Shown in pieces: positions 8,358 through 40,115 of a stretch of DNA of 45,507 bases. Position 1 is the stretch's first letter; every line of letters begins with the position of its first letter. The notes under the pieces were generated by a model, which saw only the letters and a program-made list of their open reading frames with translations, had not been told where the DNA came from and ran no database searches. This DNA comes from a virus, in UHGV virus genome UHGV-0108244; one strand, given 5' to 3'. Both the position numbers and the translations under genes were made by a program.

Positions 8358-8813
8358 GTGAACATCCCTCAATGCGGCATCAAACTGCACAGCGGCAACT
8401 TCAGCGCTATAGGCAAGATTCTTCAGGAGCATCTCTCTGACGGGAAATGCCTGCGCCTGCAGGTCAAAGAGTGGCGTGAAAAACGCAGCCTGAGCCAGAA
8501 CGCACTCAGTCACATGTGGTACGCGGAAATCAGCGAATATCTGATTAACTCCGGACGTACCGACGCAACTCCTGAGTGGGTTAAGCGCAATCTCAAAAAG
8601 ACCTATCTCGGCTGCGAAGAGGTGACCTACACGGACTTCATCACCGGTGAGAAAACCACAACCTGGGAACCCCGGCATACCTCCGATCTTGATACCGGCG
8701 AAATGCACATCTTCCTGACCAAAGTTGAGGCCTGGTGCGCTCAGTTTGGTCTGGCTCTGACTATCCCTTTCGATTGCCAATACCAGAAATTGAAGGAGTC
8801 TCAGGATGCCTAA
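8358..8813 (+). CDS. ninB: NinB-like recombination protein
   Basis: REKRSLSQNALSHMWYAEIS matches the lambda NinB motif RNRSLDQNRKLWA. Confidence 0.65.
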   Translation: MNIPQCGIKLHSGNFSAIGKILQEHLSDGKCLRLQVKEWREKRSLSQNALSHMWYAEISEYLINSGRTDATPEWVKRNLKKTYLGCEEVTYTDFITGEKTTTWEPRHTSDLDTGEMHIFLTKVEAWCAQFGLALTIPFDCQYQKLKESQDA

Positions 8814-9327
8814 CTGGAATGAAATATTCTCAATCGTAGATGGCAACCTTGTATGGGCCATAAAGCCAGCAAACCGAGTCAAGATTGGTGACATTGCAGG
8901 TCATCTTAATAATGGATACAGAAGAGTTGAATATGCAGGAGGGCAATATCAGGCCCATAGAATTGTATGGGAAATGGTGAAAGGGCCAATTCCTGAAGGT
9001 CTGGAAGTTGACCATATAAACCATGTCCGATCCGATAACAGGATTGAAAATCTTAGACTGATAATTCAGTCGGATAACATGCGCAATAAATCACTTCCTA
9101 GCACCAATAAGTCAGGTGAGATTGGAATCCATTGGAATAAAAAACTCCGCAAGTGGCATGTTCAGATCAGCGCTGATGGAAAAAGAAAATTCGTGGGTGT
9201 TTACGAGAGCATGGAAGCTGCAAAGGAGGCTAGAGACAAGGCAAAGGCTGAACATGGTTACCATGCCAACCATGGACTGCCTAATAGTCATAGCTATCAG
9301 CAACTGCAGCAAAAGCAGGAGGCCTGA
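8806..9327 (+). CDS. HNH homing endonuclease with a C-terminal AP2 domain
   Basis: [21 protein letters not shown]_3 motif and [17 protein letters not shown]2-like segment. Paralogue of the gene at 22333..22875. Confidence 0.75.
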
Positions 9328-9497
9328 TGAGCAGCCTTCTCGCCAAAGTAATGGAGCGCGGCATCTTCCGCGTGCCGGCGCGCCGCAAACGCAAAGTTGA
9401 AGTTAAACCTTCCGACATCCCGACATTTCACTATACGGCTCACCTGGCAGATGTCCGCTGGCTGCGCCGCGCTGCCCGGAGGAAAAGCCATGGCTGA
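9327..9497 (+). CDS. Small hypothetical protein, 56 aa
   Basis: ORF below the track threshold, coupled to the next gene. Confidence 0.3.
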
Positions 9498-9780
9498 TTT
9501 ACGCAAAGCAGCTCGCGGTCGCGAATGTCAGGTTCGCATCCCTGGCGTCTGCAACGGCAACCCTGAGACCACGGTATTGGCCCATATCCGCATTGCTGGA
9601 TTGTGCGGGACCGGAATTAAGCCGCCTGATCTGATCGCAGCTATCGCCTGTTCATCCTGTCACGATGAAATAGACCGCCGCACGCGCCTGGTAGATGCGG
9701 AGTATGCGAAAGAGTGCGCACTGGAGGGAATGGCCCGAACGCAGGTTATCTGGATGAAAGAGGGGTTGATAAAAGCATGA
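9490..9780 (+). CDS. DUF1364-like nin-region protein ([23 protein letters not shown])
   Basis: Conserved N-terminus and cysteine pairs; starts at an internal Met of the longer supplied ORF. Confidence 0.55.
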
Positions 9781-10139: not shown

Positions 10140-10276
10140 GCCGTGACGTTATCGAACGCATCCGCGACCGTTGGCAAAAGCTCCGCCTCTGCCGGCACCG
10201 CGGCACCGTACTGGTTGACTACCGCATACTGAGAAATTTCGTTCGCATCTATCAGACCCTGGGAGAGACAGCATGA
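10136..10276 (+). CDS. Small hypothetical protein, 46 aa
   Basis: Coupled ORF between rusA and Q. Confidence 0.3.
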
Positions 10277-10773
10277 AACTGGAATTAACCAACGAACAGC
10301 ACCAGTGGATAGATCAGTGGCTCCAGCTTTGGGGCGCATGGTGCCAGACAGGGAAGATAGACAAGGCGATGATAAATATGATCGCCAAGTTCATGGCCAC
10401 CGTTGAGCCGCAAGCACCATCAAGGCCTGTATGCAGCGATGATGATGGGTTGCTGATTGATGCCGTCATCCGACATTACCTGAAAAACGTAGATGAGAAC
10501 GCATGGAAGGTGATTTTTGCCTATTACGTCTGTAACTCAAGCGAGATAAGGATCGCTTCATGGCAGCATGCTGTGAGCAAACCTCGCCTGATGAAGACCC
10601 GCGCCGGAAACCAGTATAAGCACCCGAGCATTTCAACCATCCGCCGGGAAGTTAAGCAGGTTATCAACGCGGCACTCTTTTGCCTGTACCAGCCGCTGCA
10701 AAATGCGTTTAACGATCGCGAAAGTGTGAGGAAAATTGCAAAAAATAGTCATAACGTGCTTGCATTTCAATGA
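10273..10773 (+). CDS. Q: Late-gene antiterminator Q-like
   Basis: WLQLWGAWCQ motif. Position immediately upstream of the terminator and lysis genes. Confidence 0.6.
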   Translation: MKLELTNEQHQWIDQWLQLWGAWCQTGKIDKAMINMIAKFMATVEPQAPSRPVCSDDDGLLIDAVIRHYLKNVDENAWKVIFAYYVCNSSEIRIASWQHAVSKPRLMKTRAGNQYKHPSISTIRREVKQVINAALFCLYQPLQNAFNDRESVRKIAKNSHNVLAFQ

Positions 10774-23733: not shown

Positions 23734-24498
23734 ATGCAAGGCTGCGCTAATGACACCGGCAAGCTGATTGGTAAGGTGGCCGTGCTCCGCATGGCTTTTG
23801 GCTGTGCTGATACGGTTCCTGCGCTTTCCGAATGGAAGCGACTCGGCGCCATGACCACCAAGGGCTTCGACTACTCCATGAATACCGTCACCTCTGAGGC
23901 TGACGATACGAAAGGTATGGTTGAGAACCTGGTCAACAATATGGACGTCACCATCTCCGGAGAAGGTGAGTTCCGTAAAAAAGACAAGACGACTGAAGTT
24001 GGCGCTATTGCCATCTCGAAATATATTTTCGATGAGGTGCAGGCCGGCCGTCAGCCGACAGTCTGGGTCCGCTTCGACTTCACTGGTGAAGACGCTGGCA
24101 CTTATATCATGGGCTACTTCAACACCACCTCCTGGTCTGGTGATTTCGGCACCACGGATATTTCGACCTTCTCCGGGGAATGGAAAGTCTACGATGCAGA
24201 CACCGTGGAATTTGAGGTCGCCCCTCCGGCGCTGGCGTTTACCACAAACCAGCCGACGACCAAGAGCGTGGTTGCCGGATCGGCTCTGAATATGTCGGTC
24301 GTGGTTGAGGGTGGCACTTCGCCTTACACCTACGTCTGGAAGAAAGACGGCACGGTTGTCAGCGGGCAAACAACGGCGACCTTCAACAAGGCCAGCGCTG
24401 CTTCTGGTGATGCCGGGGTTTATACCTGTGAAGTCACCGACTCTTCCGCGACACCAGTCAAGATCACGTCTGCATCCTGCACGGTCACTATCAGTTAA
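23734..24498 (+). CDS. Major tail protein with C-terminal Ig-like domain
   Basis: C-terminal GVYTCEVTD Ig motif. Confidence 0.7.
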   Translation: MQGCANDTGKLIGKVAVLRMAFGCADTVPALSEWKRLGAMTTKGFDYSMNTVTSEADDTKGMVENLVNNMDVTISGEGEFRKKDKTTEVGAIAISKYIFDEVQAGRQPTVWVRFDFTGEDAGTYIMGYFNTTSWSGDFGTTDISTFSGEWKVYDADTVEFEVAPPALAFTTNQPTTKSVVAGSALNMSVVVEGGTSPYTYVWKKDGTVVSGQTTATFNKASAASGDAGVYTCEVTDSSATPVKITSASCTVTIS

Positions 24499-24566: not shown

Positions 24567-25262
24567 ATGACCCCGATTAAAGAATTAGGCGAATGCGTTA
24601 TCGGTACCGGTGATCGGGAATTCTTTTTCCGGCCATCGTTTCGCAACATGGCGAGAATTGGTGAGCCCGAGGAGATTGTTCAGGCATTCTATGACCTGTG
24701 CAATGACGAGGCTACGCCATTCGCGCAGCGCGCAGCTGAGGCCTATATCCGCGATGAGTACAGCCGCCTTCCTGATTGCGTCATGCGGTTTATGCAAAGC
24801 GGGCTCCTGTCACGCAAAGCGATCATGGCGGCTCACACGGTACTGACAGCCTGCTGTGACGACGATATCGGCGATCTGGTTGGCTGGATGAAACCGGGGA
24901 AATCACGTAAGCGTGGCTTTGTCTGGCGCCCGGGCAGCATGCCGCCGGAAAGCATGGTCATCGTCGCGCAAAACCTGATGATGCACGGCATCATCGGCAA
25001 GGCGAAGGTGCGCAAGCTGCAGCGTTACGAAACGAATGAGACAACCGCAGAATTCCGCGCAGCCGACTACATCATGGCGGCGCGTAACCATTTCGGCATA
25101 AGCCGGGAAGAGGCTGAGAACCTCACGATGACAGAGTTCGCCATGATGATTAACGCCAAATACCCAAATCAGAACGGCTTCACGCGCGAAGAGTACGACA
25201 CGGTCATGGACGAAGACGATCGCCGCTGGCAGGCGATGATGGAAAGTCAGACAAATCATTAA
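24567..25262 (+). CDS. Putative tail assembly chaperone
   Basis: Position between the major tail protein and the tape measure. No G/GT frameshift site was found. Confidence 0.4.
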   Translation: MTPIKELGECVIGTGDREFFFRPSFRNMARIGEPEEIVQAFYDLCNDEATPFAQRAAEAYIRDEYSRLPDCVMRFMQSGLLSRKAIMAAHTVLTACCDDDIGDLVGWMKPGKSRKRGFVWRPGSMPPESMVIVAQNLMMHGIIGKAKVRKLQRYETNETTAEFRAADYIMAARNHFGISREEAENLTMTEFAMMINAKYPNQNGFTREEYDTVMDEDDRRWQAMMESQTNH

Positions 25263-25456
25263 GCGAGAAATTAGCAATTCGTGCTATTGAAAAAATTTTT
25301 TTCATTCATTCTGGTTCACCATGGTTAATCACATCTCATCATAGTTAATGATAGATAACTTATCGTAAATGGATGAAATTTATAGCCTATTTACATGAGC
25401 GTCCGCAGGCGATTTAATGAATCCAGCAGGCGCTCTTTAACAATTAGTTGCGAGTT

Positions 25457-25819
25457 TTACTTTTCGTCATCCAGATATCCCATGCGTCTACCAAGTATTG
25501 CTGCAAGTCTCCTGGCGTGCTCTTCACCTTCGCGCAGGATTTCCGCCGTGAACGGATCTTTTTTCGCAAGAGTGGTTAAGAATATTTCTTTTTCTTCAGG
25601 CGTTGAGGTGGCATTAAAAGCAGCCTGAGTTGAGTCGAAGTCAACCAGATCGCTTTCAGAAATAGCCTTATCGGTATCAAGCGCCTCTTGAAGTATCTGA
25701 ACGATCTCTGAGTTCATTGACCTGCCGTTGGCCTTGGCGCGCTCAGCTATTGCTTCACGCATTCCTGAGGGCAGCCTTACGTTAAACCTGTCCATTTCTT
25801 GGCTAGGGAATCTGCTCAT
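25457..25819 (-). CDS. mnt: Mnt-like ribbon-helix-helix repressor (Arc/MetJ family)
   Basis: FNVRLPSGMREAIAERAKANGRSMNSEIVQILQEAL matches P22 Mnt FNFRMPMEVREKLKFRAEANGRSMNSELLQIVQDAL. Confidence 0.7.
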   Translation of the reverse strand: MSRFPSQEMDRFNVRLPSGMREAIAERAKANGRSMNSEIVQILQEALDTDKAISESDLVDFDSTQAAFNATSTPEEKEIFLTTLAKKDPFTAEILREGEEHARRLAAILGRRMGYLDDEK

Positions 25820-25837
25820 AAGTCCTCAAATTTGCAA

Positions 25838-25916
25838 TTATGACGACAAATAATAGCACCAACTTGACATCGTTTAAAATGGTGCTAAATTGGTTGTAGA
25901 ACCAAGTTGACACCAT
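25838..25916. promoter_or_regulatory. Divergent operator/promoter region: inverted repeat ATAGCACCA...TGGTGCTA around TTGACA, and direct repeats ACCAACTTGACA / ACCAAGTTGACA
   Basis: Repeats read directly in the mnt-arc intergenic region. Confidence 0.5.
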
Positions 25917-25931
25917 AGAAGGAGATAGTAG

Positions 25932-26105
25932 ATGCAAGACGTACTCTATACCGGCCGCAAGAACGACAGTTTCCAGCTTCGTCTGCCAGAGCGAATGAAG
26001 GAGGATATCCGGCGCTTAGCTGAAATGGATGGGATTTCGATTAACTCTGCAATTGTGCAGCGTTTGGCAAAAAGCCTGCGTGAGGAGCGCATGAATGGTC
26101 AGTAA
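25932..26105 (+). CDS. arc: Arc-like RHH repressor, 57 aa
   Basis: FQLRLPERMKEDIRRLAEMDGISINSAIVQRL matches P22 Arc FNLRWPREVLDLVRKVAEENGRSVNSEIYQRV. AAGGAG SD. Below the ORF-track threshold. Confidence 0.65.
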   Translation: MQDVLYTGRKNDSFQLRLPERMKEDIRRLAEMDGISINSAIVQRLAKSLREERMNGQ

Positions 26106-26799
26106 AAACGACGAAGCCCTAACTACTTGCGATAGTCAGGGCTCCTTATCGAACAAATCCCGGAAAGGAAATATCGACATGATTATTGTACAGAACAAAG
26201 AGCTAAGTTTCCACAATACCAATTTTTCATATATGGAAATGGGCGGTCAGGTCTGGCTTACGGCTGCTGAGGTTGGTCAGGCTCTGGAGTACGCTGACGA
26301 TAAAGCCGTGCAGCGCATCTACTCACGCCATGCTGATGAATTTACAGCACAAATGACAGGGGTGGTCAAACTGACCACCCCTTCAGGAAAGCAGGAAGCG
26401 CGCGTTTTTTCTCTGCGTGGCGCCCATCTTGTAGCGATGTTTGCTCGCACGCCAAAGGCCAAAGAGTTCCGCCGCTGGGTGCTGGATATTCTGGATCGGG
26501 AAATGGCGCATTCGCCGATTGCGAAGCAGTTCAGTGACGAAGAGCTTTGCTCTCTGGCATGGTTATGGCGGGCCAGCGACGTCATGCTCAAAGCCTGCAA
26601 TAGCGTAACACCTTTACTGAGAGTGGCAGAGCATCGCCAGGCGGGACACTTTCATTCAATCGGTCAGGAGTATCCGAGGTCGATTAACAAGGCAAGAGAA
26701 GTGATTAAGCGCGAGACAGCGCATATCGAATTTCACCCATGGAAGGATGATAACTGGAGCAGGGTATTACCGCACCTGCGTCAGGAGATGTTGCAATGA
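26095..26799 (+). CDS. ant: Antirepressor with Bro-N domain (Ant-like). Start may be 26095 (coupled to the arc stop) or 26179.
   Basis: LSFHNTNFSYMEMGGQVWLTAAEVGQALEY Bro-N signature. Confidence 0.65.
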   Translation: MVSKNDEALTTCDSQGSLSNKSRKGNIDMIIVQNKELSFHNTNFSYMEMGGQVWLTAAEVGQALEYADDKAVQRIYSRHADEFTAQMTGVVKLTTPSGKQEARVFSLRGAHLVAMFARTPKAKEFRRWVLDILDREMAHSPIAKQFSDEELCSLAWLWRASDVMLKACNSVTPLLRVAEHRQAGHFHSIGQEYPRSINKAREVIKRETAHIEFHPWKDDNWSRVLPHLRQEMLQ

Positions 26800-26868
26800 T
26801 GCATAAATAGAAAAGCCGACAGTTCGCAGCTGCCGGCTATCCATAAATCTGTCATAAGGGTCCAACTA

Positions 26869-27621
26869 ATGACTTCATTAAATTTAGCACCAAAAAGCAG
26901 TGTTGTCACCGATAAAACCATTGATAGCCAGTCTTTGCTGATGATGGTTAATCAGGCTCGCAAGCAGTGCGGGGAGCCAGAGGTACGCAACAATAAGTTC
27001 ATTGAAAAAGTAGTCGACGAACTTGATGGGGAGTTTTACACAAAAAGTGTAAAACCCTCCGGCACCAATGGCGGCCGTCCTGTTGAGGTAATTGACATGA
27101 CGATCAAGCAGGCCCTTCGCGTGGCGGCCCGTGAGTCTAAAGCTGTTCGCCGCTCTTTGGTTGATAAGCTGGAAGACATGCAGGCTATCCAGGTGCCTAC
27201 TAAAAGCACTTCAGGACTTACTGAATACCGGCTTGCCAAAGCTGAACAACTCAAAGCTCAGGCGCTGGAGAAAAACATCGCATCGGCCCGTGAGCTGATG
27301 TCAATGTTCCCGCGGCTTGGTGAATCGGCTAACCAGGTGATCGTTGCCACCCTTGTTAACCCACTTCTCGGCCACGAAGTTGTGCCACTGCCGGCGATTG
27401 AAGAGCATTACTCAACGGCGGGTGAAGTAGCGGCGCAGCTCGGTTGCACTGCGAACAAGATCGGTCGCGTAGCCAATAAACACAACCTGAAAACTGAGCA
27501 GTACGGCAAGTTCTTTCTGGATAAGTCGAGACACTCAGATAAGCAGGTTGAGGCGTTTCGCTACAACGCCGAGGGAGTTCAGGCACTTCGCCATCTGATT
27601 AACGGTGCTGATGTTGCCTAA
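26869..27621 (+). CDS. Second regulatory protein, Rha/KilAC-antirepressor-like
   Basis: Weak resemblance to the Rha N-terminal pattern. Sits in the same island. Confidence 0.35.
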   Translation: MTSLNLAPKSSVVTDKTIDSQSLLMMVNQARKQCGEPEVRNNKFIEKVVDELDGEFYTKSVKPSGTNGGRPVEVIDMTIKQALRVAARESKAVRRSLVDKLEDMQAIQVPTKSTSGLTEYRLAKAEQLKAQALEKNIASARELMSMFPRLGESANQVIVATLVNPLLGHEVVPLPAIEEHYSTAGEVAAQLGCTANKIGRVANKHNLKTEQYGKFFLDKSRHSDKQVEAFRYNAEGVQALRHLINGADVA

Positions 27622-27666
27622 CTGCCTGATAATAAATCGAAGCACTAATTAGTGCTTTGGTCTCTC

Positions 27667-27689
27667 AAACCCGCTTAACTGCGGGTTTT
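27667..27689 (+). terminator. Hairpin AAACCCGC-TTAACT-GCGGGTTTT, a member of a repeated family
   Basis: Read directly from the sequence. Confidence 0.55.
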
Positions 27690-27714
27690 GTCGTTACCGC
27701 TAGATGGTGAAAAA

Positions 27715-27927
27715 ATGAATAATAAAATAAACGGCATTGTGGATGTAGGTGAAAAACAAGAGAGTCCAACCCCAGGCGAGCCCGCGGAGCTTGGTGGTAT
27801 AGGGGCCGATATTAAGTCCATGGAAAACAGGATTGTTGACAAAATGGACGAAAATCAGAAGTGGCTGGTTGGCCTTTTGGTGTCGGCAATACTGGTGCCT
27901 TTGTTCATCGCGTTGGTTACTAAGTAG
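27715..27927 (+). CDS. Small protein with C-terminal TM (XhlA/holin-like or tail-associated membrane protein)
   Basis: ENQKWLVGLLVSAILVPLFIALVTK hydrophobic tail. Confidence 0.35.
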   Translation: MNNKINGIVDVGEKQESPTPGEPAELGGIGADIKSMENRIVDKMDENQKWLVGLLVSAILVPLFIALVTK

Positions 27928-28001
27928 CGCTGCGGCGGGTTTTGTCGTATCGCTCCCCCTCTGCTACGATTGCCGCATCATTTACTGATGGGGATAGGGA
28001 T

Positions 28002-28403
28002 ATGAAACGCATCACGGCAGTGGCATTGCTTTCTCTCGCGTTAACCGGTTGCTATAAGTCCGCGCCAACTGAGCAAGAGGCGATCGATACGGCTAAAAAA
28101 GAAGTATTGATGGCTGTATGCGGTGATAAAAACAATAGTTGCGTAGATATTAGCGGTGGGAATGCACATGTCGCTGATCGAAGAAATGACAATACCAACC
28201 AAGTTACTGTTACTTTCAAAACAATCAAAGCCAATGGTGACGCACAGAAATCAAATGCTGTAAACGTAGATGCAGGCATGGTGGTCTACGACTTCGACGC
28301 CAAAACAGGTGAGACGTACATTAAACAACTTTCGCTCTGGTCCGATGATGGCAAGCACTCTATAGAACTATGCGGACATGATTATAAGTTTTGTCGAAAG
28401 TAA
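28002..28403 (+). CDS. Lipoprotein moron (signal peptide MKRITAVALLSLALTGC). Candidate superinfection-exclusion lipoprotein.
   Basis: Lipobox LTGC. AT-rich. Bracketed by hairpin terminators. Confidence 0.6.
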   Translation: MKRITAVALLSLALTGCYKSAPTEQEAIDTAKKEVLMAVCGDKNNSCVDISGGNAHVADRRNDNTNQVTVTFKTIKANGDAQKSNAVNVDAGMVVYDFDAKTGETYIKQLSLWSDDGKHSIELCGHDYKFCRK

Positions 28404-28416
28404 ATATTAACTCCCT

Positions 28417-28441
28417 AAAACCCGCTCCGGCGGGTTTTTTT
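28417..28441 (+). terminator. Bidirectional hairpin AAAACCCGC-TCCG-GCGGGTTTTTT
   Basis: Read directly from the sequence. Confidence 0.65.
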
Positions 28442-28457
28442 ATGCCCGGAGATTTGT

Positions 28458-31109
28458 ATGGCTGAAAAAGTTGGTGATCTTTACTATGACGTTGATATAG
28501 AAACGGCCAAGTTAATCAGTGGCAGTAGAAAGGCTTCTGATGTCCTCGGGGCGATGGATAAGAGCGCAAGAGGTGCAAGTGCGGGAATTGATAAGTTAGA
28601 TAATTCCGGGCAGAAGGCTGCCGGATCAATGGATGTTCTTAAATCGGCTTTATCCGGGGTAGCAAGTGCTATCACCGTCTCGTTAATTATTGATTACGGT
28701 AAAGCATTCCTTGAGGTTGCCGACAATGTAACTCAACTGCAGTCAAGGATCGCAAGGCTATCTTCTGGCGCTGATGAAGCTAAAGTTACCTTTTCTGCTT
28801 TGGCGCAGATTGCATCAAACACGGGAGCAAGTCTTCAAAATACGCAAAGCTTATGGGAGAAGTTGACATCATCGCTTAAAGGAACAGGCGCCACCAATAG
28901 CCAAATTCTCTTTCTGACCGACACGCTTCAAAAAATAGGGCGAGTTGGCGGTAGTTCAGCAGAGGAAATGGCTACAGCTTTGCGGCAATTTGGTCAATCG
29001 ATAGATGGTGGTGTTGTCCGAGCAGAAGAATTCAACTCCGTGGTTGAAAGCATGCCTGAGTTAGCCAGGCAAATGGCGGCTGGCCTGGGTTTGTCCATGG
29101 GTCAGTTACGACAGGCAATGCTTGATGGAAAAATCACAGCCGAGGCCGCCCTTAACGCTATCGCCAAACAATCTGCGGTTGTTAATCAGGAGTTTAATAA
29201 ACTCCCCAGGACAATGGAGCAGGCCAGCAATAGCCTTACCGTCTCTCTTTCCTTACTGGTCGGGAAAATGAACGAAGCCACCGGCGCCAGTACAACGATG
29301 GTAGCCATCATTGATTCTATAAGTGCAGCCATAGACAGGTTGAGTGGAAGGACTGAGACGGCGGCGCAAAAAATTGCTGATTTAACATCAACTGCTGAAA
29401 TGTACAGCAAAAGAGCAAGGACGTGGTCATGGCTCGGTCTTGATGGTTGGTCTCAACAAAATAAGGCGCTTTCAGTGCTAAGCACCAAGGCGGCCACCCT
29501 TGCCGGTGATCTTAGTGCCGTAGGTAAAGCTTCTGAGGATGCCGCTAATTCGCAGAAGGGGTTTGGTGGTGTAAACGCGGCCAACCCCAAACAAGACAAT
29601 CTCATCAAAATATCTGAGCGCCGTCTTGCATTGGCCAAACTTGAAGGCGAGGCGCGAGCCAGGCTTCAGGCCCAATATGATGCAGCTGATGCTGGGGTGA
29701 CCGATCCTAAGCGAATAAAAGCGCTGCAGGACGAATACGCCGAAACCTACCGGGTTACGGAGGCCAGGAAGGAAAGCGACAAAGCCGGGAAGCAGTCTGC
29801 TTCCACCGCTGAGTCTATAGCTCAAAAACTCGAAAACCTTCGCCAGCAGTCTGAGCTTGCAGCGGACTCAACTCAGGAGTTGAGCCGTGAGCAGGCGATA
29901 TTGCGTGCGCAGCAGTCTCTCGGTAAATCAGCTACTCAGGCTCAAATCCAGGAAGCTGGTAAATACGCAGCAGCCGCATGGGATGCAGCCGCAGCGGCGA
30001 AGGGGGTAACAGAGGCGCTTAATGCCATTCCGGAACAGGCTGAGAATAAATCCTACGCTGAATCCATGCAGAACCTGAAAGCGGCGCTGAACGCCGGGAA
30101 GATTGATCTGCAGGAGTACAACGCAGCCACTGAGCAGATGGAGCAGCAGCATCAGGCCAACCTTGCCAAAATACGCTCGCAGCAGGTGGTTAACCCCACC
30201 CAGCAGGCACTTGCCGAAGTTGACCCGGTGCAGCAGTTGGCCAACCAGCACGCGCAGGAGCTGGCGCTGATTCAGCAGTTCGAGCAACAAGGAGTTCTCG
30301 CCCATGAGAATGCATTGGCGCTGAAAAATGCCGCTGACCGGCAGTATGAGCAGCAGCGGATCGCAGCTCAATGGGAAATCCTGAGCCAGCAAAGCCTCGG
30401 CTATAACATGCTGACGAGTGCGGTGGATGCCTTTAGTGGGAATGCCTCCAATGCGATCACCGGTCTGCTAACCGGCACAATGTCAGCACAGGAGGCGATG
30501 CGGTCGCTAGGTAACACCATCCTGAACAGCGTGATCAACAGCATTGTTCAGGTTGGCGTCGAAGCGCTGAAAAACTACATCCTCGGTCAGACGCTCGGTG
30601 CCGCATCGGTGGCGACCTCAGTCGGACTGGCGGCAACTACCGCTTCCGCCTGGGCTCCTGCGGCCGCGATGGCATCGCTCGCCTCGTTCGGCGCTAACGC
30701 TGGCCCGGCTGCAGCTGGTATCAGTTCGACAGTGGGGCTTGCTAACGGGCTTGCGCTCGCCGGCGCTCGCTACAACGGCGGCCCGGTATCAGCCGGCGGC
30801 CTGTATCAGGTCGGCGAGAAAGGCAAGCCAGAGATCTACCAGGCCAGCACCGGCAAGCAGTACATGATCCCCGGCGATAACGGGAAGGTCATCAGCAATA
30901 AGGATATGCAGTCAGGAGGAGGGATCAGCGTGCAGGTGAACGTCATAAACCAGTCTACCGGTGCCACTGTACAGAGTGCCGATGGCTACATGCAGGACGG
31001 TAGCGCAGTTGTGGACTTGCTGATCACCGACATAGAAAGAGGCGGCCCGGTATCCTCTCAGATGCAGCAGACATTTGGATTAAGTCGTAAAGCGCAAGGC
31101 GCTTACTAA
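28458..31109 (+). CDS. Tail tape measure protein
   Basis: 883 aa, Ala/Gln-rich coiled-coil, canonical position. Confidence 0.85.
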   Translation: MAEKVGDLYYDVDIETAKLISGSRKASDVLGAMDKSARGASAGIDKLDNSGQKAAGSMDVLKSALSGVASAITVSLIIDYGKAFLEVADNVTQLQSRIARLSSGADEAKVTFSALAQIASNTGASLQNTQSLWEKLTSSLKGTGATNSQILFLTDTLQKIGRVGGSSAEEMATALRQFGQSIDGGVVRAEEFNSVVESMPELARQMAAGLGLSMGQLRQAMLDGKITAEAALNAIAKQSAVVNQEFNKLPRTMEQASNSLTVSLSLLVGKMNEATGASTTMVAIIDSISAAIDRLSGRTETAAQKIADLTSTAEMYSKRARTWSWLGLDGWSQQNKALSVLSTKAATLAGDLSAVGKASEDAANSQKGFGGVNAANPKQDNLIKISERRLALAKLEGEARARLQAQYDAADAGVTDPKRIKALQDEYAETYRVTEARKESDKAGKQSASTAESIAQKLENLRQQSELAADSTQELSREQAILRAQQSLGKSATQAQIQEAGKYAAAAWDAAAAAKGVTEALNAIPEQAENKSYAESMQNLKAALNAGKIDLQEYNAATEQMEQQHQANLAKIRSQQVVNPTQQALAEVDPVQQLANQHAQELALIQQFEQQGVLAHENALALKNAADRQYEQQRIAAQWEILSQQSLGYNMLTSAVDAFSGNASNAITGLLTGTMSAQEAMRSLGNTILNSVINSIVQVGVEALKNYILGQTLGAASVATSVGLAATTASAWAPAAAMASLASFGANAGPAAAGISSTVGLANGLALAGARYNGGPVSAGGLYQVGEKGKPEIYQASTGKQYMIPGDNGKVISNKDMQSGGGISVQVNVINQSTGATVQSADGYMQDGSAVVDLLITDIERGGPVSSQMQQTFGLSRKAQGAY

Positions 31110-38951: not shown

Positions 38952-40115
38952 TTACGCAAGTTTCAAACCAGCCTGATTTCCTCCTTGTGTCGTATTTGTG
39001 TCGCTAGCGCCAAAAATGGCGTCAATTTTCCGTGCATGTTCGGTCAGGTGGTTCGGTGCCAGGTGAGCATAACGACGCACCATCTCGATGCTTTCCCATC
39101 CTCCCATTTCCTGTAAAACAGAAAGCGGGACGCCGGACTGGATCAGCCAACTCGCCCAGGTGTGCCGAAGGTCGTGAAAACGGAAATCCTCGATCCCCGC
39201 TTTTTTCAACCCGGCGCGCCAGGCGTTATTGTCATCCACCCGCATTTTTCTAACTGCGGGCGTTAGTGTTCCATCCGGGCGATGTTTTGCCGTGGTGTGA
39301 ACGAACACCCATCGGGAGTGCTTCCCTATCTGATCCCTTAATACCCTGCATGCGGTATCATTCAGAGCTACGCCTATCGCCTTGCCCGCTTTTGCGTTCT
39401 CCGGATTTACCCATGCAACCTTTCTCTGCATATCGACCTGCTGCCACTCAAGCCCGATGATGTTTGAGCGGCGCAGGCCGGTTGCCAGTGCAAATATCAC
39501 CACTGGCTTAATGCTCTCCGGCATGCACTCGATCAACCGCTCAGCTTCTTCTCTGGTCAGCCACCGTATCCGCTTACTGATCGGCTTGCGGGTTTTGATA
39601 ACAGGGGCTGTTTTTATCCAGCCCCAGTCATTCGCCGCGGCCCTGAGAAGGGAGCGAATGAAGGAAAGGTGTTGAGCCTTCGTAGCCTGCGAAACCTGCC
39701 GTGGTTTGTACTCCGGAACCGGCTTTCCCTTCCTCATCGCGGCATCACGCTTACTCTCCCAGACCTGCAGGTGTTTACGGTTGATCATCCCGTTAACGGC
39801 TTCGTGAACTTCCTCCGCCGTTATCTTCGAGACATCACGGCCGGAAAAATGCTGCAGCCAAAACTCAATTTTGGTTTTGTCATCATCCAGCGATCGCTTA
39901 TGGTCCTTTTCCCGCAACCACCGGATACAGCATTCTTCGAAGGTTCTGACGGGCAGATCGCCGATCTGGTCAACCCGCCACGCTTCCGCCTTCAGCTTGT
40001 CGTGGAGCTCCTGAGCCTGCTTTTTGTCCCCCGTGCCAAGAGATCGCCTAACTCTTTTTCCTGACGGCGTAAAGAAATGACAGTGCCACACGCCGCCCCT
40101 GAGGGTGATTGACAT
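38952..40115 (-). CDS. int: Tyrosine integrase
   Basis: [39 protein letters not shown] (R-H-R-Y catalytic set). Confidence 0.95.
38984..39008. repeat. attP P'-arm: two TTGTGTCG copies (inverse of the P-arm repeat) within the int 3' end
   Basis: Read directly from the sequence. Confidence 0.45.

Follow-up and report, generated by a model that had tools for sequence, protein, structure and literature searches.

A probable homologue of the P22 immI antirepressor region carried as a mobile cassette in the tail operon of a Klebsiella lambdoid phage

Why would a lambda-like phage genome carry what looks like a second set of repressor and antirepressor genes in the middle of its tail operon? The question is raised by positions 25457-27621 of UHGV-0108244, which is the genome of a Klebsiella phage, lambda-like (lambdoid) in its gene content, and which, at its full length of 45,507 nucleotides (nt), is referred to here as the window. 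An earlier description made from the letters alone (the sequence-only reading) had proposed that this island reproduces the logic of the immI region of phage P22, in which two small ribbon-helix-helix (RHH) repressors, Mnt and Arc, control the antirepressor Ant. We examined the island with homology, structure and covariation analyses, and made the P22 comparison with the annotated P22 genome. The answer that we consider probable is that the island is a homologue of P22 immI, the “ant moron”, carried as a mobile cassette in the Q-dependent late tail operon of a lambdoid siphophage. The circuit is of a known type; what appears to be new is a further antirepressor-like gene, for which a separate antisense RNA is predicted, and the setting in the tail operon of a siphophage. 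All four open reading frames (ORFs) listed by the sequence-only reading were found where it had placed them, and together with the predicted control elements they make up the following features:

25457-25819, minus strand: mnt-like gene, 120 amino acids (aa), N-terminal RHH and three-helix C-terminal domain (Pfam Arc, PF03869, E=2.9e-21)
25850-25878, minus strand: predicted Pmnt-like promoter, -35 TTTAAA (25878-73), 17-nt spacer, TG-extended -10 TATTAT (25855-50) (consensus scan, 9/12)
25854-25916, no strand: operator candidates, comprising ACCA/TGGT-core boxes, an inverted repeat and a near-palindrome (repeat analysis)
25864-25891, plus strand: predicted Pant-like promoter, -35 TTGACA, 16-nt spacer, TG-extended -10 TAAATT (consensus scan, 10/12)
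25932-26105, plus strand: arc-like gene, 57-aa RHH protein (Pfam Arc, PF03869, E=4.9e-12)
26105-26178, minus strand: sar-like RNA, ~70 nt, with a 5' stem-loop containing the anti-Shine-Dalgarno (anti-SD) sequence of ant, then a terminator hairpin (26113-26145) and a U-run (Rfam RF00262 and covariation)
26179-26799, plus strand: ant, 206 aa, Bro-N and P22_AR_C domains (Pfam)
26185-26213, minus strand: predicted Psar-like promoter in the 5' end of ant, -35 TGGAAA, 17-nt spacer, -10 TACAAT (consensus scan)
26805-26874, minus strand: sar2, a second predicted antisense RNA, ~70 nt, complementary to the SD and start codon of ORF4 (fold and covariation)
26869-27621, plus strand: ORF4, second antirepressor-like gene, 250 aa (phrog_1726 and fold-level resemblance)
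26881-26909, minus strand: predicted Psar2 promoter in the 5' end (first 41 nt) of ORF4, -35 GTGACA, 17-nt spacer, TG-extended -10 TAAATT (consensus scan)
27640-27697, plus strand: hairpins after ORF4, a palindrome AAGCACTAATTAGTGCTT, then AAACCCGC-TTAACT-GCGGGTTT and TGTCGTT (read from the sequence; the first hairpin also in the scan)

The repressor genes have the arrangement and family that had been read from the sequence, a divergent pair of the Arc/MetJ type in which both products exceed the Pfam Arc (PF03869) gathering score. The leftward protein is the Mnt-like one, its RHH domain being 51% identical to P22 Mnt over 43 aa (expectation value E=1e-14) and finding P22 Mnt (1mnt) in a PDB search at E=2e-8 versus 6.5e-4 for Arc. 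The rightward protein is the Arc-like one: it is 40% identical to P22 Arc across 43 aa (E=3e-10) and matches Arc in the PDB at E=5e-5 versus 0.028 for Mnt. The C-terminal extension that had been noticed on the leftward protein is present, and an AlphaFold2 (AF2) model folds its helices 61-113 into a three-helix domain with a predicted local distance difference test (pLDDT) score of 82-86, but this extension is unrelated to that of P22 Mnt.

The antirepressor gene that follows arc carries two Pfam domains, Bro-N (PF02498; E=1.4e-11, 45.3 bits against a cut-off of 25.6) and P22_AR_C (PF10548; E=2e-17, 63.5 bits against a cut-off of 22.4). P22 Ant consists of P22_AR_N and P22_AR_C according to Pfam, so that the cassette Ant has Bro-N in place of P22_AR_N. 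Alignment to the three P22 proteins, which had been suggested as a check, thus relates both RHH domains to their counterparts and Ant through its C-terminal domain only (25% identity over 69 aa, E=6e-6). PDB sequence and NCBIfam searches with Ant gave nothing useful beyond the Pfam domains. The listed ORF of the Bro-N antirepressor begins at 26095, and this start probably needs correction. Translation most likely begins at 26179, because of the position of the sar-like RNA, a near-universal SD and ATG, and the lack of conservation of the codons upstream. The SD and ATG at 26179 (GGAAATATCGACATG) are almost invariant in 45 unique relatives. Starting at the in-frame ATG at 26095 would give a protein of 234 aa, and the 28 extra codons (26095-26178) are open in 44/46 unique variants; however, they are not conserved as protein, their residues changing radically wherever both arms of the hairpin have changed, and in two loci (L006 and L027) the frame is shifted by indels, so this extension is probably non-coding. 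In many relatives the ATG of the extension and the 3' end of arc overlap (ATGA-type coupling). Translational coupling to arc could yield a longer Ant isoform, a reading of these sequences that we do not favour.

The P22 likeness extends to an element that the sequence-only reading had not seen. Exactly between the arc stop (26105) and the internal ATG at 26179, an Rfam search of 3.3 kb matched RF00262 (sar) on the minus strand at 26109-26177, over the full model length (1-68), with 30.7 bits and E=0.002. In a control, P22 sar itself scored 97.8 bits, and relatives of the cassette scored 41.1 and 32 bits; these intermediate scores argue that the sar family is continuous, and by structure and position the RNA at 26105-26178 appears to be a diverged member of it. 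RNAalifold applied to MAFFT alignments picked up the terminator stems alone, the 5' stems being misaligned, and the latter were then analysed sequence by sequence. In the 45 unique relatives 98.6% of the terminator stem is paired, and 6/9 pairs have changed on both sides, a result that 0/500 shuffles match. Summed over pair types, it contains ~54 G.U cells on the minus strand, each of which would read as a C.A mismatch in the mRNA. In almost every variant a 5' stem begins at nucleotide 1, with at least six arm sequences in all, some of them P22-like. The Psar-like promoter lies in the same place in 41/43 unique gene starts of relatives, and its predicted -10 falls on nt 7-12 of ant, exactly as does the -10 of P22 Psar. 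The claim that the island follows P22 immI logic is sustained by the RHH pair, by predicted overlapping divergent promoters and by the P22_AR_C domain of Ant, and is extended by the sar homologue.

Between mnt and arc, the predicted Pant-like and Pmnt-like promoters overlap divergently (25850-25891) in a manner comparable to the annotated Pant and Pmnt of P22, and the TTGACA -35 of the Pant-like promoter is retained in nearly every operator type of the relatives. The control region itself falls into at least six types among them. This region had been called operator-rich, and its repeats are indeed above chance. There are five ACCA/TGGT-core boxes (25856-62, 25879-85, 25889-95, 25899-905 and 25910-16), with cores spaced by 22, 11, 10 and 11 bp, and four strict RMACCAW boxes occur in 112 nt versus 0.16 expected from the window's own frequency (~25-fold enriched). 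The inverted repeat TAGCACCA (25854-61) / TGGTGCTA (25880-87) is 100% complementary over 8 nt, although the ninth base included by the sequence-only reading is unpaired; the duplication of a TTGACA-containing repeat was seen correctly, TAGCACCAACTTGACA (25854-69) and TAGAACCAAGTTGACA (25897-912) being 88% identical. Further, four of the boxes make a 38-bp near-palindrome with 17-nt arms (25879-25916) over the -10 and +1 of the Pant-like promoter, one of only two 17-nt-arm near-palindromes of such quality in the 45.5-kb window. The other (2560-2600) lies inside the gene for the O-like replication initiator (2233-2967) and may be a replication origin.

Variation among the relatives suggests which repressor would read these boxes. 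The repeated box covaries with the beta-strand by which the Mnt-like protein would read DNA, RFNVRLP occurring with ACCA, KFMLRFP with TCAC and RFTVRMP with ATCA, while the Arc-like beta-strand SFQLRLP is common to all three cassette types. Because the box varies with the Mnt strand and the Arc strand stays constant, the ACCA-core boxes would be Mnt-type operators, an assignment of protein to site to which the covariation points. In KFMLRFP-type cassettes (L009, L006, L033 and others) the mnt-arc intergenic region contains a palindrome, ATCATGTCACGGTGACATGAT; its core, CACGGTG, also forms the centre of the mnt operator of P22, GGTCCACGGTGGACC.

The feature with no counterpart in P22 is ORF4. 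It matches phrog_1726, labelled “anti-repressor”, at E=5.7e-87, and its C-terminal part matches the PHROG Ant families 130 and 63 at ~1e-9. Its family comprises ~1,900 Enterobacterales proteins, almost all of them labelled “hypothetical”. When the AF2 model of ORF4 was compared with the viral structure library BFVD, the top matches were proteins named antirepressor, KilAC, KilA or Rha (E=3e-7 to 1e-3); a Foldseek search of the PDB gave weak MerR/RacA/Xis-like winged-helix matches only, over ~65 aa and at best E=0.04, and a PDB sequence search gave nothing useful.

The spacer between ant and ORF4 appears to have the same design as the arc-ant spacer, with a leftward promoter, a hairpin complementary to the ribosome-binding site and a terminator. 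All 42/42 unique variants of this second predicted RNA, sar2, fold as a 5' hairpin that complements the ORF4 SD and start followed by a terminator, with a mean z of -3.4; the terminator hairpin lies at 26814-26838 and precedes a U-run on the minus strand. Its stem is 100% paired, with double changes at 3/9 pairs and a covariation score reached by 0/500 shuffles, and its 42 minus-strand G.U cells (summed pair-type counts) argue for an RNA made from that strand. The Psar2 promoter has an identical position in 31/31 unique gene starts, 28/31 of which match 9/12 positions versus 0.6% of random windows. There is no Rfam match for sar2 (26805-26874), which is a prediction. By analogy with the annotated ant terminator of P22, the hairpins at 27640-27697 are tentatively taken as the probable end of the ant operon.

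Is the cassette a fixed part of this genome or an insert? On its left lie the gene for the major tail protein (23734-24498) and a gene for a DUF6246 / phrog_791 protein (24567-25262), and on its right a membrane protein gene (79 aa), then a lipoprotein-like ORF and, beyond these, the tape measure gene (28458-31109). The sequence-only reading had placed the island between the tail chaperone and the tape measure; the position stands, but the left neighbour belongs to an uncharacterised family that occupies the position expected of a tail assembly chaperone, and can be called a chaperone only by position. By megablast, the cassette occurs at 83-89% identity in several Klebsiella phages and one E. 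coli prophage. A search of viral contigs with ORF4 yielded 80 loci; an ant homologue lies directly upstream in 72/80, most have a leftward mnt-like gene, and identities are mosaic gene by gene. About 27 loci have the siphovirus context of major tail protein, DUF6246, cassette and tape measure, and ~20 have an unrelated baseplate-type backbone in which the cassette lies between the hub and baseplate J genes. Across these ~80 contigs the cassette is always within a late tail operon, in two unrelated backbones. Sister phages with the same flanks have other cargo in the slot, for example a KilA-N protein, a solitary antirepressor or DUF4065 genes, and the gap between DUF6246 and the tape measure (25263-28457) is a hot spot of variable cargo in this phage lineage. 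The earlier description of an inserted island is thus borne out, both by the other cargo in the same slot of close relatives and by the same cassette in an unrelated baseplate-type backbone. As a late-operon insert with its own predicted promoters and terminator-like hairpins, variably present in relatives, the cassette has the character of a moron.

The repressors are the part that changes most. Among the relatives the Mnt-like RHH domain is fused to at least six unrelated C-terminal domains. In one locus (L038, 4158-5234) mnt is replaced by a leftward helix-turn-helix (HTH) and S24 repressor of the LexA/CI-like kind with a GDSM motif, and arc by an unrelated 57-aa protein; in another (L027, 4783-5262) the divergent RHH pair is very diverged. 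Both keep sar, ant and ORF4. Since mnt is replaced in these loci, the constant core consists of sar, ant, the second predicted RNA and ORF4, with an exchangeable repressor pair. The S24 protein of L038 would make antirepressor expression SOS-responsive.

Compared with P22, the cassette has the same gene order and orientation (mnt, arc, sar, ant), homologous repressors of the RHH family, a candidate palindromic operator spanning both the -10 and the +1 of the ant promoter, a ~70-nt sar-type RNA with its terminator in the arc-ant spacer, an Ant with a P22_AR_C domain and a terminator-like hairpin after the antirepressor genes. Both systems also lie within a late operon between virion genes, beside small membrane or lipoprotein morons (sieA in P22); in the annotated P22 genome, immI is located between injection gene 16/sieA and tailspike gene 9. 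For this reason the description of a second immunity circuit embedded among late genes is right as to location, but the location is not an oddity. The differences are that here the host is a siphovirus and the slot is that between DUF6246 and tape measure (or, in the second backbone, between baseplate genes); that the Mnt-like protein ends in a predicted three-helix domain unrelated to that of P22 Mnt, out of at least six alternatives seen in relatives; that ACCA-core boxes stand where P22 has GGTCCACGGTGGACC; that Bro-N replaces P22_AR_N and sar has diverged below the Rfam gathering score; and that a further antirepressor-like gene, ORF4, is present together with a predicted antisense RNA against it. 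The immI region of P22 has been described as the “ant moron” and as a site of high genetic flux (Casjens and colleagues, PMC2629481), and immI-like loci outside P22 have been noted earlier (PMC6372524, PMC12922286, PMC2629481). In the literature that we covered, which is incomplete, we found no publication on such a cassette in siphovirus tail operons or on a double sar arrangement.

Other antirepressor systems share parts of this design. The small antirepressors of coliphage 186 (Tum), the Gifsy phages and Salmonella SPC32H (Ant) inactivate a maintenance repressor without cleavage, as Ant here might, but as far as compared these proteins are not homologous to those of the cassette. The cassette with the HTH and S24 repressor would have the kind of control found in LexA/CI-like-controlled antirepressors, whereas that of the window uses an RHH Mnt-like repressor with no direct SOS link. 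In the immI regions of P1/P7 (c4 antisense RNA, icd, ant1/ant2) and the loci of N15/phiKO2, a small antisense RNA restrains an antirepressor at the ribosome-binding region, and, like the cassette, these loci form a secondary immunity region apart from the primary repressor. The c4 RNA of P1/P7 arises by processing of the same transcript and works in trans at repeated target sites, and an Mnt/Arc RHH pair is absent. No homology of sequence or structure to these loci came to light, though no search aimed at it was made.

The surrounding genome agrees with the lambda-like character that had been claimed for it. A leftward CI-like HTH and S24 repressor gene (817-1506) is followed by Cro-, CII-, O- and P-like genes; a gene for a Q-like antiterminator (10273-10773) leads to lysis, terminase, head and tail genes in that order, and an integrase is also encoded. 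From terminase to tail fibre all genes are rightward over ~25 kb, and the mnt-like gene is the sole leftward gene among them. The integrase gene (38952-40115) lies mid-window, and the early-left genes exit one end and resume at the window start. Because of this, the window has the appearance of a whole phage genome in circularly permuted form and not of a prophage bordered by host DNA. Two neighbouring genes for HNH endonucleases (8806-9780; phrog_99 and phrog_131) are located in a nin-like region upstream of RusA and Q. The AT-richness attributed to the island is only mild. Its GC content is 0.493 versus 0.519 for the whole window and ~0.55 for the flanking late genes, 5-6 points under the latter and at the 17th percentile among windows of the same size; strong AT-richness is confined to the intergenic pieces (0.35). 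One of these is the left junction:

25263-25456, no strand: spacer from the DUF6246 gene to the 3' end of the mnt-like gene, GC 0.351, AT-rich

In this junction no ORF had a family match and the terminator scan found no canonical leftward terminator. Between the cassette and the tape measure there is a separate two-gene moron (27688-28443). Its 79-aa membrane protein has weak XhlA/holin-like matches and matches phrog_6324, and its lipoprotein-like ORF, with a likely start at 28002 (MKRITAVALLSLALTGC, lipobox), matches phrog_20460. A strong rightward terminator hairpin, AAACCCGC..GCGGGTTTTTTT, lies at ~28412-28443 and caused spurious Rfam matches to Trp_leader and small RNAs. As this moron adjoins an immI-like module, which recalls sieA in P22, it may act in superinfection exclusion.

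How would such a cassette work? From the homology of the parts and the way they are laid out, from conservation and covariation in the two RNA structures and their promoters, and from the mobility and mosaicism described above, we infer the binding events, the assignment of operators to repressors, the activity and targets of the antirepressors and the expression of both RNAs as follows. In a lysogen, the Mnt-like repressor made from Pmnt would occupy the boxes with an ACCA core and the near-palindrome that spans the -10 and +1 of Pant, keeping arc, ant and ORF4 silent. Upon infection, or when Mnt is short, Pant would fire, producing Arc first; Arc would then re-close the promoter region, and by this shut-off antirepressor would be produced only as a burst. 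Ant, and probably ORF4 too, would bind and inactivate CI-type prophage repressors without cleavage, the targets being the phage's own HTH and S24 repressor (817-1506) or those of co-resident prophages. The sar homologue and sar2, transcribed from promoters inside the 5' ends of ant and ORF4, would pair with the ribosome-binding sites of their targets and block translation of read-through or leaky mRNA. Since the tape measure and distal tail genes can be reached only by late transcripts that cross the island, two antisense RNAs would be needed against translation of this read-through.

Several observations weigh against the immI reading or parts of it. The sar-like RNA, at 30.7 bits, is below the RF00262 gathering score of 43. 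The N-terminal domain of Ant differs from that of P22, and the part that aligns is limited to 69 aa at 25%. Pairwise comparison of the Mnt-like protein past residue 54 showed zero similarity to the tetramerisation domain of P22 Mnt, and a Foldseek search with the AF2 model of its C-terminal domain gave no PDB match; for these two reasons the product of 25457-25819 is best regarded as Mnt-like by its RHH domain and position, not as a full-length Mnt orthologue. No Arc operator could be assigned, and cassettes with equal Arc beta-strands share only ATAGCA and the -35. The arms of the 8-nt inverted repeat are 26 bp apart centre to centre, versus the 11-bp half-site spacing of Arc. Scans gave 5 promoters versus 4.3 in shuffled sequence and 6 terminators versus 3.8; with counts no higher than this, the case for promoters and terminators rests on position and conservation. 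For ORF4, no Pfam family matched at E<=5, including Rha (PF09669) and KilAC, and there was no NCBIfam match; the AF2 model is of medium confidence (pLDDT 64, predicted template modelling score, pTM, 0.33), and the TM-scores of its fold matches are low. The “Rha/KilAC-like” label of the sequence-only reading thus survives as a resemblance between modelled folds, not as family membership. Finally, Bro-N, KilA and Rha proteins are not always antirepressors.

The last point leads to an alternative that keeps the homology with immI and that we regard as possible, if rather unlikely: Ant and ORF4 may act on the repressors of other prophages, or as DNA-binding regulators or toxic effectors, and not on the phage's own CI, the RHH pair and antisense RNAs serving only to silence them in the lysogen. 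Such a payload would fit the swap of the N-terminal domain of Ant relative to P22, the absence of ORF4 from any curated family, the movement of the cassette among unrelated backbones that likely have different primary repressors, identities that are mosaic gene by gene, and the solitary KilA-N or antirepressor genes in the same slot of related phages; trans-acting antirepressors are also documented in Salmonella prophages (Lemire et al. 2011, cited in PMC12922286). Against it stand the P22_AR_C domain shared with P22 Ant and a PADLOC search that found zero defence-system matches for any cassette protein. P22 Ant itself acts on the repressors of several lambdoid phages, so that cross-talk does not preclude self-induction, and action on other prophages is compatible with the immI reading.

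A different use for the same elements would be to gate late transcription into the tape measure and distal tail genes, through repressor binding, convergent transcription from Pmnt and the terminators, with antirepression secondary or lost. The island does interrupt the only route from the late promoter to the tape measure gene, the cassette is always in tail operons in two backbones, and the idea that transcription of the P22 ant moron may set tailspike levels has been raised (PMC2629481). Yet sister phages function with wholly different cargo in the slot, so gating is not essential, and the strong conservation of both large ORFs and of the translation-blocking antisense units argues that the proteins matter; we think this explanation unlikely. 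It is highly improbable that the two divergent RHH genes form a regulatory module of the toxin-antitoxin, partition or plasmid kind (CopG/ParG/TprA-like), unrelated to immunity and with a superficial likeness to immI. That idea draws on weak RHH cross-matches to the FitA, HicB and CopG antitoxin families, on PHROGs labelled “partition protein ATPase” and on NCBIfam matches to TprA and BrnA far under their cut-offs. We rejected it because the pair matches Arc (PF03869) and P22 Mnt/Arc best, neither a toxin gene nor an ATPase gene lies next to it, the sar homologue and an Ant with P22_AR_C follow in P22 order, and PADLOC is empty.

Returning to the immI homologue, which we prefer, a more specific and bolder form of it can be put forward only tentatively, and we hold it to be doubtful as a whole. 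The cassette would be a two-effector immI, in which Ant and ORF4 are each insulated from Q-antiterminated read-through by a cis-antisense RNA of their own and stand behind swappable repressors, either an RHH pair of at least six operator specificities or a cleavable repressor of the LexA/CI-like kind. It would move as a block into the tail slots of unrelated siphovirus and baseplate-type phages, and its effectors would target different repressor classes and induce both rival and own prophages.

The immI region is a textbook circuit, the source of the Arc and Mnt repressors and, in sar, of one of the first antisense RNAs described, and to our knowledge it has been studied almost only in P22-like podophages. 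The loci considered here indicate that the whole circuit, including sar, travels as a mosaic cassette into the tail operons of siphophages of Klebsiella and other Enterobacterales and of baseplate-type phages. Should the second antirepressor-like gene with antisense control prove real, the use of antisense RNA to shield toxic or switch proteins from late read-through would count as a design rule that can be reused. The relatives would also offer a natural set of at least six pairs of Mnt-type beta-strand and operator for the study of RHH specificity. In practical terms, antirepressor cassettes influence how prophages are induced and cross-induced in clinical Klebsiella lineages, and they bear on the safety of therapeutic phages derived from temperate ones.

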